From a virus (Duplodnaviria; Heunggongvirae; Uroviricota; Caudoviricetes): a DNA stretch of 10,112 nt. The stretch covers positions 128,095-138,206 of the IMG/VR virus record IMGVR_UViG_3300006201_000003. One strand, 5' to 3'. The notes beneath the pieces were generated by a model that was not told the origin of the DNA, did no database searches, and saw only the letters and a list, made by a program, of their open reading frames with translations. This document shows positions 1,672-10,030 of this stretch, in pieces. The position numbers and the translations under genes are program-made. Position 1 is the stretch's first letter; each line of letters opens with the position of its first letter.

Positions 1672-2008
1672 ACAACGTAGGTCTTTTAAGAAGAAACACG
1701 GAAAAACAGCACGAGAGTATGCAGCAGACAAACTTAATAAGCTCTCTCAGAAAATTGAAAATCATTTGCTGGATGGCGATAAAGTAAGATTGGATGTAGA
1801 CCGTATTGTAAGCCGTAGTGATTATGCACACACAACTGAAGAGTATAAGGAGTTTGTGGAGTCCTCTCGTGATAAGGTTTTCACTGTCCGTCTTTATCGA
1901 AAACGCAATGATGGTTTTTCTGCGATAGTCGAACTTGCTGAAGAACCTAAGTGGTTGTTCTGGTATGGTGATCTGGTTCTGGTTCAGAATGGAGGGCAGT
2001 CCTATTAA
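1661..2008 (+). CDS. Hypothetical phage protein (~115 aa), basic N-terminus MNREQRR
   Basis: GTG at 1661 with AGGGGG upstream (TTG 1655 alternative); overlaps the upstream stop; same-strand operon packing. Confidence 0.75.
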   Translation: MNREQRRSFKKKHGKTAREYAADKLNKLSQKIENHLLDGDKVRLDVDRIVSRSDYAHTTEEYKEFVESSRDKVFTVRLYRKRNDGFSAIVELAEEPKWLFWYGDLVLVQNGGQSY

Positions 2009-4826
2009 CGGTTCAGTGTATATTGTATCTGCGGATGCAAAAGATTTGTTTTTGTCTAACTATTCCAATAGCCGTTGCATAGGGTATACCGTGCGGTATA
2101 GTGGTGGAGAGAACCAGGGAGAGTTTAATACCAAACGGTTTATAAATACGCTGGATTACAGCTTGGACTTAATCAAATTGCGTGAAATCTATGAGAAGGT
2201 TTACCGCAGAATGGATTTCACATTCAGCAAACGAGGGAAGGAATTTTGCCGTCGTGTTATCAATGTGACATTCAAGTACAGCATCAAGGAGTTCAATCGC
2301 TTCTTCGATAAGACATATATCAAATATGGATACTTGCCAAGCGACGTGGAGCTTGTAGATAACATCTGTATAAAAGACGGTGAGTTGATTGCAGTGCGGA
2401 TTGATGAAACAGTAAACAATCCGGTTGCAGCGTCTGTACTTGGTTCCTTATTCGTTTTTGAAGATGGTGCTTACAAGTTGGGGAAGAATATGAAGGTTCT
2501 ATTTACTGCTGCCCAACTTCGTGACCGTCTGTATCACGATGGATTTGACTGTGACGGAATCCATTTTCAGCGGTTTAAGCGTTCTGCCGGCAGTGGACGT
2601 GTTGGCAAATGTTTGTTTATCGACGAGAAACTTTACCCGCGTATGCACAAGTGGGAGCAGTGTGGTTTACGTGTCCGTCAAGGGCAAGAAATGGATCTTG
2701 CTGGATTCGAGGCGTACATTGCATTGACATTGAGTAGCATCATCGGAACAATTCAACTTCGTCCTGAAAACTTCCTTGTAATTGATGACTTCACCAGCAC
2801 ATTCAAAGATAAGGTAATTGCTACACGTCTTGGTGACGATGGTTGGCTTTCTTCTAAACCAGAAGAGGTTGAAATTTCCAACAGCATCTGGGATGGGCAG
2901 TCTCTTATCGACAAGAGTGCTATGGGTGAGTACGGCGAACATGGTATGATTCTTTTACGTAATAGGTTTTTTAAGTCTGCTTGCTTCAACTGCAATGTCC
3001 AGAAATTCTTTACGGAACAAGGAATCACGGAAGTGTCACAGTTGAACGGGTTTACCCTTGCCCAGTCTATTGAAGAAATCAAAGTGATTACTACACCAAG
3101 CAGTATTAAATATGTCAAGTTTGGCTCGTTGGAGCAGTGGCTTCAACTGTTGGAGGAGGATGGGGATTTTGGTGTTGTCAAACATGAAAAGCCCACACAT
3201 TTCTTTGACGGTAGGATGGTGCAGATTCACTACCAGCTGTTAAATACCTTGCAGATGACGCAGGAGGACGTTGACTCTCTGGTGAGGCCGTCTCTTGAAT
3301 ATTTACAGTTGATCGAAAACGACCCTGCCGTACTTCGGTATCATATCCGATACACTGGTGGAGAAAAGCCTTTGGACGCAGCGCCTTCGACGAACGACAT
3401 CATCTATCAGATGCTGGGGGTTACGGATCTCTTCGCCCAGACGAAGCTGTACGATGACTACCGGCACGATATTTCCAAAGCGTTCAAGAAAGACATTCGG
3501 CGTGGGCATATTCTGGTGAACGGGAACTACTCTACCTTGCTTGGCAATCCGATGGAGATGCTGTTCTCCTCTATCGGACAGTTCGACGGGAAGAGCCAAA
3601 TCGGTGTTGGAAATATTTACAGTAAACATTTCTCATTTAATCAGACCATTCTGGGATCTCGCAGCCCTCATGTGACGATGGGCAATATTCTTTTAGTTAA
3701 GAATAAAGAAAACCCAGAGATTGAACACTTCTTCAATCTTACAAATGAGGTAGTGTGTGTCAACAGCATTGAGGAGAACACCCTATTTCGTCTTTCGGGA
3801 GCCGACTTCGACTCTGACACAATGCTTCTAACGGACAACCCCATTCTGATACGGGCAGCGGTGCGTAACTACCACCGTTTCCTCGTGCCTACCAGTCTTG
3901 TTGATGCCAGAAAAATTGTGCGGCACTATACCAGAGTGGATCAGGCTGATCTTGACATCAAAACATCTGTAAACAAGATCGGTGAGATTGTTAATCTTTC
4001 CCAAGAGTTGAACACGAGGCTGTGGGATGCAATGAACGGTGGAGTAGACTTCTCCGAGGTGGAGGAGTTGTACTGCGAGATCGCCCAGCTGGACGTTTTG
4101 AGCAACATCGAGATCGACAAGGCGAAGCGTGAGTACGCAGTAGATAGCATTGGTGAAATCAAACGGCTGAGGAAGAAGTACGAAATGCGTGACAATGACG
4201 GGAGGCAGATCAAACCCAACTTCTTAGGGAAAATCGCCCGCATGAAAGGCTATTACGATAGTGACCGTAAGAACTATAAGTTCCATGACACCACTATGGA
4301 CTATCTGCAACATAGCCTAAACTCTTTCCGAATGAAGTGCATTAAAAAGCCGATGCTGCCGTTCTCAGCTTTGCTGGTGCCTACGAGCGGTGTTGATCTG
4401 AGCCATTCAGTGTGGCATCCGCAGGTAAACCGCATTTTGGAAATCGTTAGGGATATGCGGACGAAGATTCAGGCGATATGGAATAGTACCAATGACGATT
4501 TGGATAACGTCAGTAAAGCGATCCTTGTGAATGAGGTGCGCCAGGAGTATCTGGACTATATCAAAAATATCAAACTTAGCCGTCATACGGCGTGTCGTCT
4601 GCTGCTGGCGATTGAGGAGCCGACCAACAAGGATATTGGCCGCACCCTGTTCTATGCTCTCTTTTCTTTGCCTAATCAGGACTTCATTGACCTGATCGAG
4701 CAGAGCCGGACACCGATCTCAATGCTGATAGAGGATGAAAATGCAGCCGGAAGCATTGAAATATACGGTCTTCGCTTCCGAAAAGACATGGTAGTTCCGT
4801 CAAAACTCGTGGATTACATCTGTTGA
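1989..4826 (+). CDS. yonO: YonO-like single-subunit phage RNA polymerase (double-psi beta-barrel, eukaryotic RdRP-like family)
   Basis: Long ORF with RdRP-family motifs in order: KRSAGSGRVGKCLF, WDGQSLI (2889), RNRFFKS (2958), RSP (3660), catalytic loop SGADFDSD (Asp triad 3804-3818). Synteny with yonV/yonK/yonJ/HU as in SPbeta. Start is ATG 1989 or ATT 2004 (see findings). Confidence 0.85.
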   Translation: MEGSPINGSVYIVSADAKDLFLSNYSNSRCIGYTVRYSGGENQGEFNTKRFINTLDYSLDLIKLREIYEKVYRRMDFTFSKRGKEFCRRVINVTFKYSIKEFNRFFDKTYIKYGYLPSDVELVDNICIKDGELIAVRIDETVNNPVAASVLGSLFVFEDGAYKLGKNMKVLFTAAQLRDRLYHDGFDCDGIHFQRFKRSAGSGRVGKCLFIDEKLYPRMHKWEQCGLRVRQGQEMDLAGFEAYIALTLSSIIGTIQLRPENFLVIDDFTSTFKDKVIATRLGDDGWLSSKPEEVEISNSIWDGQSLIDKSAMGEYGEHGMILLRNRFFKSACFNCNVQKFFTEQGITEVSQLNGFTLAQSIEEIKVITTPSSIKYVKFGSLEQWLQLLEEDGDFGVVKHEKPTHFFDGRMVQIHYQLLNTLQMTQEDVDSLVRPSLEYLQLIENDPAVLRYHIRYTGGEKPLDAAPSTNDIIYQMLGVTDLFAQTKLYDDYRHDISKAFKKDIRRGHILVNGNYSTLLGNPMEMLFSSIGQFDGKSQIGVGNIYSKHFSFNQTILGSRSPHVTMGNILLVKNKENPEIEHFFNLTNEVVCVNSIEENTLFRLSGADFDSDTMLLTDNPILIRAAVRNYHRFLVPTSLVDARKIVRHYTRVDQADLDIKTSVNKIGEIVNLSQELNTRLWDAMNGGVDFSEVEELYCEIAQLDVLSNIEIDKAKREYAVDSIGEIKRLRKKYEMRDNDGRQIKPNFLGKIARMKGYYDSDRKNYKFHDTTMDYLQHSLNSFRMKCIKKPMLPFSALLVPTSGVDLSHSVWHPQVNRILEIVRDMRTKIQAIWNSTNDDLDNVSKAILVNEVRQEYLDYIKNIKLSRHTACRLLLAIEEPTNKDIGRTLFYALFSLPNQDFIDLIEQSRTPISMLIEDENAAGSIEIYGLRFRKDMVVPSKLVDYIC

Positions 4827-6996: not shown

Positions 6997-7064
6997 ATTT
7001 TGTTCGTCGCTATTGACATCCACTGAAACCTGTGGTATAGTATGACCATAGCGACGAACAAAAT
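6997..7064. repeat. Perfect 17-bp inverted repeat flanking the promoter core
   Basis: ATTTTGTTCGTCGCTAT (6997-7013) and ATAGCGACGAACAAAAT (7048-7064), 34-bp spacer. Confidence 0.9.
7013..7041 (+). promoter_or_regulatory. Consensus sigma-A/sigma-70 promoter for the RNA array
   Basis: TTGACA (7013-7018), 17-bp spacer, extended -10 TGTG-G-TATAGT (7031-7041), upstream A-tract 6982-6997; predicted TSS ~7047-7048, ~21 nt before tRNA-Thr. Confidence 0.9.
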
Positions 7065-7068
7065 CAAT

Positions 7069-7144
7069 GCTGATGTAGTTCAGTTGGTAGAACGACTGAT
7101 TTGTAATCAGTAGGTCGCAGGTTCGACCCCTGTCATCAGCTCCA
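7069..7144 (+). tRNA. tRNA-Thr(UGU)
   Basis: 76-nt cloverleaf; GCTGATG/CATCAGC acceptor; ACTGA-TTTGTAA-TCAGT; GGTTCGAC T loop; encoded CCA. Confidence 0.95.
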
Positions 7145-7150
7145 TGTTCC

Positions 7151-7767
7151 TTGAAAACTTAATCTTTGAATCATGCTTATTACTAACTCGGTGAACAAAG
7201 TGTGTCAGCACTCCGAGGTATATGGTAATTTCGGTAGGAACTGCGAGGGATACCTTGCAGGGAGGATCGTCGTCATGCAGCGATGTAGGGCGAGGAGGCG
7301 GAAACCGCCAAGAAAAACATATTTCGCTAAGAGTTATCGCTTTGTAACGCACAGAACTTTCGGGCGCAGCAATAGACGCTCCATGTGGAGAATAAGCCTT
7401 GCAGTATATCGGGGTGGTAGCCGATTATACGGAGGTAAAACCAATAATGTGCTTCTGTCTTGATGCCGAAGAAATTCGGCTATAACGAAAGTATCTGGTT
7501 AAAGTAGCCGTAGGACAGGTTGAAAACATCTTTTCATTTTGAAAGTATGTAGACTATACAGGTCAATAATGAAATTTTCTGAATGAACGGTGAAATTTGC
7601 GGGTAGACAATCCCGTGCAGGATATGGCGCTGATGCGCTGGGGCAAGAAGTTAGGGGTCGCTCCCCGAAGCTCAGACTTGTCTCCCTGGTGGCGGAACAA
7701 CAAGGAAGATAATGGAGGTAGGGTGAAGACCCAGTAATGAGTGTGATTGAGAGATTAAGTTCTTCAA
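7151..7767 (+). ncRNA. Large structured ncRNA, probably ROOL-class (core ~7169-7748, ~580 nt)
   Basis: 5' and 3' ends pair over ~34 bp; many internal hairpins (7241-7260, 7297-7309, 7465-7480 with GAAA loop, 7654-7666, 7721-7732); lies between two tRNAs in a phage; no credible CDS. ROOL assignment rests on size and context only. Confidence 0.6.
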
Positions 7768-7791
7768 AGTAGCGAATAAAATCGCTGATAC

Positions 7792-7867
7792 GGGGCCGTA
7801 GCTCAGTTGGGAGAGCGCCTGCCTTGCAAGCAGGAGGTCGGGAGTTCAATCCTCCCTGGTTCCACCA
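7792..7867 (+). tRNA. tRNA-Ala(UGC)
   Basis: Cloverleaf; G3:U70; CCTGC-CTTGCAA-GCAGG; encoded CCA. Confidence 0.95.
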
Positions 7868-7894
7868 CGCATAGGTACTTTGACAATTTCATAT

Positions 7895-8321
7895 GGGGCC
7901 GTAAAGGATTCGACGGGGTTTTGAGAGTACAGGACTCGCAGGTAGAAGACCGCCTAAAGGCTTAAACAAAAATGAAACGACAACACTGAAACTGTCATTA
8001 TGATCCATCCCGCTTTTGCCGCTTTCATGGCTGAGAGGATTGCCGCCTGATTGGTGGAGGACTTTCCAAAACGACGTACCAGCTGGATATAGGTAAACGT
8101 CTGAGGTAAAAGATTTATCCAGCACTTGCAGTTTTTCCTTGTACTTCTGTTAAATAAAGACAAGGTGGTGGAGGTGTGCAAACCATTGTACGCCCTGGGA
8201 TAGATTTGACGGTATCGCAAGCGCCCGCTGTAATGCAACGCTGAAAAATCGTCTATTGCGTAAGAATGTCTTGTTCATGTAGGAATTTCGGACGCGGGTT
8301 CGATTCCCGCCGGCTCCACCA
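7895..8321 (+). ncRNA. ssrA: tmRNA (427 nt); predicted tag (A)DNTETVIMIHPAFAAFMAERIAA at 7979-8050
   Basis: 5' GGGGCCGTAAAGGATTCGAC and 3' GGACGCGGGTTCGATTCCCGCCGGCTCCACCA tRNA-like domain with G3:U pair, no anticodon arm; internal frame ending ...IAA-stop. Confidence 0.93.
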
Positions 8322-9771: not shown

Positions 9772-9793
9772 ATGAAAAGAGGTGCTGTTTACG

Positions 9794-10030
9794 GTGCGGA
9801 AATCTGCTGTGGTTAAAGACGTATCTGAAAAGATTGTAAAGAAAATTCCGTCTTCTGAAAATGGGCCGGGCGTGTCCTGCACAACTAAGAATGGGCAGAA
9901 CTATCAGATCAGTCAGAATTTGGAGAAAATGAAATTTACTCTTTGGAAGGTCACAGAGAATGGCTTTATCAAGATTGCAACAGCAAATTCTCCACTTGAC
10001 CTTGATGATTTGATTCCGTGGAATGAATAG
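9794..10030 (+). CDS. Hypothetical protein (~78 aa) embedded in the tRNA array
   Basis: Fills the gap between two Glu tRNAs almost exactly; SD AGAGGTG (9778-9784) precedes in-frame GTG 9794 (GTG 9782 alternative). Confidence 0.65.
   Translation: MRKSAVVKDVSEKIVKKIPSSENGPGVSCTTKNGQNYQISQNLEKMKFTLWKVTENGFIKIATANSPLDLDDLIPWNE

Follow-up and report, generated by a model that had tools for sequence, protein, structure and literature searches.

A full-length ROOL RNA with a boxA-headed, rRNA-type stalk near the head of a phage tRNA operon

Results

The window, a stretch of 10,112 nt (positions 128,095 to 138,206 of IMG/VR record IMGVR_UViG_3300006201_000003), carries a ROOL RNA close to the start of a phage operon that also comprises 18 tRNAs and a tmRNA. 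The operon's first features are:

7013 to 7041, plus strand: promoter of the sigma-70/sigmaA type, TTGACA-17-TATAGT with an extended -10 TG (11 of 12 consensus positions)
7069 to 7144, plus strand: tRNA-Thr(UGU) with encoded CCA, an optional cassette between leader and boxA (ARAGORN, Rfam)
7145 to 7159, plus strand: boxA of the Bacillota rRNA type, doubling as the stalk's outer 5' arm (genome matches, B. subtilis consensus)
7151 to 7168, plus strand: 5' arm of the outer, processing-type stalk, pairing with 7749 to 7767 (pairing, shuffles)
7163 to 7751, plus strand: full-length ROOL RNA, RF03087 (cmscan; compensatory changes)
7169 to 7184, plus strand: 5' strand of P1 (Rfam match and pairing check)
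7733 to 7767, plus strand: 3' side of both P1 and outer stalk (pairing, shuffles, compensatory changes)
7792 to 7867, plus strand: tRNA-Ala(UGC) (ARAGORN)
7875 to 7886, plus strand: second boxA-like element, ahead of the tmRNA (degenerate motif match)
7895 to 8321, plus strand: phage tmRNA of the same operon (RF00023, 93.3 bits)

On the 20.3-kb phage contig, genes for an integrase, an HNH nuclease, a 963-aa protein of unknown family, an exonuclease and an HU-like protein come first; the RNA operon follows the gene of the HU-like protein and is succeeded by terminase and portal genes. Four IMG/VR phages were found via the 963-aa protein, and all four have ROOL and tmRNA in the same position. 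A blastn search of the GenBank phage set returned no named relatives. BoxA type and ROOL distribution indicate that the host is probably a Bacillota bacterium. An equivalent promoter is present in 8 of 10 close relatives, transcription would start near 7048, and in the interval from promoter to tmRNA no terminator-like site was found except the D-arm of tRNA-Thr. In two relatives (L003 and L004) tRNA-Thr is missing and the promoter leader passes directly into boxA, which makes ROOL the first product of their operon.

Several further elements were observed around the operon. A 23-nt inverted repeat (6997-7019 and 7042-7064; 91%, inner 17 nt perfect) brackets the promoter, and since both arms have changed together in L004 (T to C, A to G), its symmetry is under selection; the repeat could serve as an operator or else fold into a hairpin when read-through RNA is made. 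A small hairpin between ROOL stalk and tRNA-Ala (7772-7787) resembles the 5' leader of the operon. The tmRNA, matched by Rfam and missed by ARAGORN, has an unusually long putative tag, NDNTETVIMIHPAFAAFMAERIAA, which ends in AA; a permuted-tmRNA match at 7811-8026 was rejected as an artefact overlapping tRNA-Ala and the stronger standard tmRNA match. Four ACAGCAA motifs (8564, 8625, 9200 and 9980) lie in gaps between tRNAs, and two similar ORFs of 75-82 aa within the tRNA array (9782-10030 and L001:13128-13355), apparently a duplicated gene, had no PHROG match. The 963-aa protein (1935-4826; phrog_8308, unknown function) weakly matches an RdRP-like phage family around a DFDSD motif (E 0.032) and is possibly a YonO-type single-subunit RNA polymerase, although Pfam, NCBIfam and PDB gave no support.

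The cmscan search of Rfam 15 matched the ROOL family (RF03087) at 7163-7751 on the plus strand with 379.2 bits (E 4.9e-88). This is 3.8 times the gathering score of 99.1 bits, and the match is full-length, covering model positions 1-574 of 574. An earlier note, made from the letters of this DNA, had described an ornate RNA of about 580 nt between tRNA-Thr and tRNA-Ala as ROOL-like or a new class, and had suggested cmscan against ROOL and GOLLD, with a strong ROOL match lowering the novelty. Its location and its ROOL guess were both right, the full-length match rules out a new class, and the novelty is lower as the note foresaw. GOLLD, RNase P RNA and SRP RNA, none with an Rfam match at E<=1, were likewise rejected as identities, in line with the note's remark that RNase P and SRP signatures are absent. 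Size and proximity to tRNAs, nothing else, speak for a new ornate class or a GOLLD relative, and against the strength of the ROOL match and the missing GOLLD match such a reading retains practically no probability; GOLLD, likewise a large cage-forming phage RNA near tRNAs, is unrelated to ROOL in sequence and fold.

The 589-nt region folds at -194 kcal/mol, far beyond chance (z = -4.4; reached by 0 of 100 shuffles). Among 11 close relatives, 52 of the 169 predicted pairs have changed in a compensatory manner. The RNA has a length (589 nt), a closure by P1 and a multi-junction fold with covariation support that agree with RF03087. Protein coding was rejected for two overlapping ORFs, a 96-aa one on the plus strand (7173-7463) and an 81-aa one on the minus strand, which shrink to 11-56 codons in relatives; the comparison covered these two, beside which a 116-aa minus-strand ORF lies at 7499-7849. 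ROOL match, fold, compensatory pairs and ORF collapse together point to a non-coding ROOL RNA. We therefore regard the RNA, with near certainty, as an ordinary full-length ROOL, a known phage RNA of ~580 bases.

For comparisons within the family, homologues were collected from IMG/VR by two patterns, one with the L18 loop fixed and one with it free, and reduced to 39 representatives at 90% identity; a clade-thinned set held 25 sequences. Shuffling takes away relatedness only in part. Bridge B1 was mapped via Supplementary Table 2 of PMC12286853. The elements inside the RNA are:

7203 to 7208, plus strand: L2 loop, whose UCA (7205-7207) is able to form bridge B1 with UGA (7584-7586) in the linker flank of an adjacent molecule
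7279 to 7284, plus strand: GCGA tetraloop of the GNRA type closed by A-U, docking on the P2 receptor, C7187/U7188 (covariation)
7375 to 7390, plus strand: P7 hairpin with upstream GAC, candidate for the daisy-chain bridge B3 (C7377 with loop G7385), present here
7414 to 7442, plus strand: L8 GGU (7416-7418) and J6/8 ACC (7440-7442), kissing bridge B4 (covariation)
7471 to 7474, plus strand: L9 GAAA loop, A-minor bridge B2 (Rfam match, mapping)
7515 to 7577, plus strand: AU-rich variable linker, unconserved in the alignment, limits approximate
7658 to 7662, plus strand: L18 loop UCGCU, with G7660-C7661 as symmetric self-kissing bridge B6, equivalent to env-120 G565:C566'

Complementarity at B1, in a test anchored on structure rather than on alignment columns, and at B4 was reached by 0 of 2000 shuffles, also in the clade-thinned 25 sequences. 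B4 retains three of the four pairs of env-120, and B1 comprises only three pairs here and two in some close relatives. B1 (UCA:UGA), B2 (GAAA) and B6 (G7660-C7661) are kept as sequence capacity only. For the adenosine stack B5, no position could be assigned to env-120 A505, as the loop is shorter here. The linker that corresponds to 7515-7577 is disordered inside the cage in the solved ROOLs (PMC12286853).

The L18 loop itself varies in an informative manner. A self-complementary dinucleotide is kept in all 39 representatives (33 GC, 6 CG), and in all 16 of those that were found without fixing the loop (10 GC, 6 CG). In six of the 39, a GACG tetraloop, whose CG is still self-complementary, replaces UCGCU. 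In retroviral RNA, loops with GACG are known to serve in dimer linkage (PMC516450). The GACG-loop variants (L095, L116, L118, L128, L138, L165 and L171) occupy no fewer than two or three distinct branches. As further variants in the family, we noted an AU dinucleotide at the place of L18 in L173, a ~23-nt insertion in the P3 arm of the ROOLs at L003:12204-12814 and L004:15149-15758, and two ROOL-motif loci each in IMGVR_UViG_3300032167_000002 (L043, L057) and IMGVR_UViG_3300045988_151883 (L015, L066); these genomes may each have two copies of ROOL, or the records may overlap.

The loop TCGCT (7658-7662) had earlier been proposed as a potential partner of AGCGA (7279-7283). Both are present and complementary over 5 bp, but a pseudoknot between them found no support: the mean Watson-Crick run between L18 and L5 was 2.28 versus 2.32 with shuffled partners across the 39 representatives, and with G-U allowed 3.97 versus 3.79, a value reached by 90 of 2000 shuffles and, after clade thinning, by 703 of 2000. 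AGCGA consists of A7279, which pairs with U7284, and the GCGA tetraloop that this pair closes; the three pairs closing the GNRA loop are intact in 99% of cells. Between the loop's third base and the P2 receptor base, the combinations are G/U in 25 cases, A/C in 3 and G/C in 1 (n=29). Such third-base/receptor covariation is the classic GNRA-receptor rule. The covariation seen here agrees with the P2 tetraloop-receptor contact described for solved ROOLs (PMC12286853). The complementarity here is perfect, and many relatives have AGUGA, which would allow the pairing with a single wobble. However, the partner loop remains GNRA in the GACG-loop relatives, the GNRA loop covaries with P2 instead, and L18 contacts L18' in cryo-EM. 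Both loops have other partners in the solved structures. We thus consider the pseudoknot very improbable. The contrast between this result and the signal at B1 and B4 is clear across the three tests, despite the residual relatedness.

Positions 7169-7184 and 7733-7748 form ROOL's P1, with 16 of 16 positions paired and exactly three G-U pairs (duplex -17.0 kcal/mol; 0 of 2000 shuffles as good). The earlier note had described precisely this helix, yet understated its extent, since it is the inner part of a stalk of ~33 bp. The stalk continues outward past a single G-G mismatch with 12 bp between 7156-7167 and 7750-7761, and its outermost 5 bp join 7151-7155 to 7763-7767. The outer stalk alone reaches -18.0 kcal/mol, unmatched by any of 2000 shuffles, and shows compensatory changes at four of its pairs among the 11 relatives. 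In comparison to known ROOLs, P1 is thus lengthened to ~33 bp and headed by boxA.

This boxA, TGTTCCTTGAAAACT (7145-7159), directly follows the CCA of tRNA-Thr and differs at two positions from the consensus of B. subtilis, whose boxA, AUGAUCUUUGAAA, binds NusB (PMC13753749). Among 120 exact matches of TGTTCCTTGAAAACT in bacterial genomes, 48 are followed by a 16S or 23S start within 260 nt, and for a further 17 the downstream sequence is too short to judge. In 12 of 12 testable operons, pairing between this element and the rRNA trailer has the geometry that is seen here with the ROOL trailer. Leaders and spacers of Bacillota rRNA operons contain an identical 15-mer with the same pairing, whereas the stalk described here encloses a phage non-coding RNA instead of 16S or 23S, and its outermost pairing (-18 kcal/mol) is weaker than the -27 to -39 kcal/mol of the rRNA operons.

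Calling boxA by the published B. subtilis consensus with at most three mismatches, we found it ahead of none of the 15 ROOLs that directly adjoin an upstream tRNA, but ahead of 20 of the other 24, against a background of 5%. The Fisher P of 1.5e-7 overstates this association because 10 of the 15 abutting ROOLs fall in one clade; nevertheless, well-supported branches force at least four changes. Two ROOLs, L065 and L132, are likely misclassified because ARAGORN probably missed an abutting tRNA. BoxA also tracks clade and CCA-encoding tRNA sets (16 of 19 with such sets versus 4 of 19); the correlation with CCA has 7 exceptions among 38, whereas the rule that tRNA-abutting ROOLs lack boxA has none. 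In the tRNA-abutting ROOLs, P1 is short, at about 11-17 bp. BoxA is present in L003 and L004 without tRNA-Thr, so it travels with ROOL, and it stays even where the closest tRNA is hundreds of bases away from ROOL. The expressed ROOL of L. salivarius has, by eye, neither boxA nor a long stalk, which makes the feature optional. A degenerate boxA motif, chosen post hoc after the data had been seen, occurs twice in 20 kb versus 0.29 expected (6 of 200 shuffles).

Discussion

The new copy belongs to a catalogued family, described by Weinberg et al. 2017 (PMC5737381), and the class itself is known and structurally solved. A view of this RNA as unexplored would be outdated: several ROOL cages have been solved by cryo-EM, and ROOLs form hollow octamers or hexamers without any protein (PMC12286853, PMC12990946). 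The env-120 ROOL is octameric even at nanomolar concentration (Kretsch et al. 2025, PMC12286853), the E. faecalis ROOL is an octamer, and that of L. salivarius a hexamer (reviewed in PMC12990946). The copy described here resembles these RNAs in length, full secondary structure and phage tRNA-island context, and appears to share with them the tetraloop/receptor contact, bridges B1, B2, B4 and B6, and a B3 candidate.

We consider it highly probable, judging by these retained contacts, that the RNA assembles into a cage. Because the RNA retains the majority of the contacts known from solved cages, and B1 and B4 covary beyond shuffles, an octameric cage is likely; the stoichiometry is suggested by analogy, since P7 is intact here and deleted in the hexamer-forming RNA of L. 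salivarius (PMC12990946). Taken jointly, the ROOL identity and the cage offer a very likely explanation of this locus. Kretsch et al. stated that L18 is too conserved for such covariance analysis (PMC12286853). The natural swap from UCGCU to GACG provides the covariation for B6 that this conservation was said to preclude, and supports selection on cage closure in vivo.

How the RNA may be made is suggested by its flanks. Host RNA polymerase would transcribe ROOL from the strong promoter at the operon head, and boxA may recruit host NusB/S10, as on rRNA operons. The ~33-bp stalk would then be cut by the host's rRNA-stalk nucleases, of RNase III or Mini-III type, which would release a stable RNA of ~570-590 nt that folds into the ROOL monomer and self-assembles via bridges B1-B6 into a hollow RNA-only cage. 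By analogy with the rRNA operons, we hold such boxA- and stalk-based processing to be moderately probable. It is rather unlikely that ROOL is instead freed by tRNA punctuation, that is by 3' trimming after tRNA-Thr and RNase P cleavage at tRNA-Ala, with boxA serving operon antitermination only. The CCA of tRNA-Thr adjoining boxA, the 15 of 39 relatives that abut tRNAs and lack boxA, and the second boxA-like element ahead of the tmRNA, whose possible pairing is weak, are in favour of such punctuation. However, boxA is retained in the relatives without tRNA-Thr and far from any tRNA, and the outer stalk carries compensatory changes.

The split between ROOLs with boxA and those abutting tRNAs suggests two maturation routes in the family. 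Many phage ROOLs might thus be rRNA mimics in their biogenesis, with boxA loading the Nus complex for co-transcriptional folding and host rRNA nucleases cutting the stalk, while other lineages repeatedly switched to tRNA-abutting release and lost boxA; we put this generalization forward tentatively, at just short of an even chance. Among the papers listed by a literature search that covered few subscription titles, none joins boxA with ROOL or GOLLD, which is weak evidence of absence.

The biological role can be addressed with more reservation. ROOL may be a very abundant, nuclease-resistant member of the phage's translation-support kit, next to tRNAs and tmRNA, and in infection or lysogeny it may offer a scaffold or decoy to host factors that bind or attack RNA. 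In L. salivarius, ROOL is as abundant as 16S rRNA, and its deletion caused no growth phenotype (PMC5643018). This scaffold or decoy role is a possibility that we regard as somewhat doubtful and nonetheless prefer over the other two proposals. The hollow cage of ~280 A and the co-transcription with 18 tRNAs could indicate a container for cargo such as tRNAs, a ribosomal subunit or proteins, as proposed by Kretsch et al. (PMC12286853). We consider a container unlikely: in the solved structures, which were assembled in vitro from RNA only, the cage holds nothing but the linker, this linker is unconserved, and ROOL is not known to have a partner. Quite unlikely is also a ribozyme or replicon-maintenance factor for which the cage would be incidental. 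Large conserved folds are often catalytic (PMC5737381), and the deletion in L. salivarius reduced megaplasmid copy number (PMC5643018), but ROOL has few invariant nucleotides (PMC5737381), the setting here is a tRNA operon, and the covarying bridges point to selection on the multimer.

As a sequence, this ROOL copy matters little, the family being catalogued and its structure solved. The distinction between boxA-and-stalk and tRNA-abutting ROOLs, by contrast, predicts the host factors that make the RNA and ties ROOL to the rRNA machinery. If rRNA mimicry in biogenesis holds true, ROOL cages would enter the ribosome-biogenesis pathway of the host, and might compete with it.
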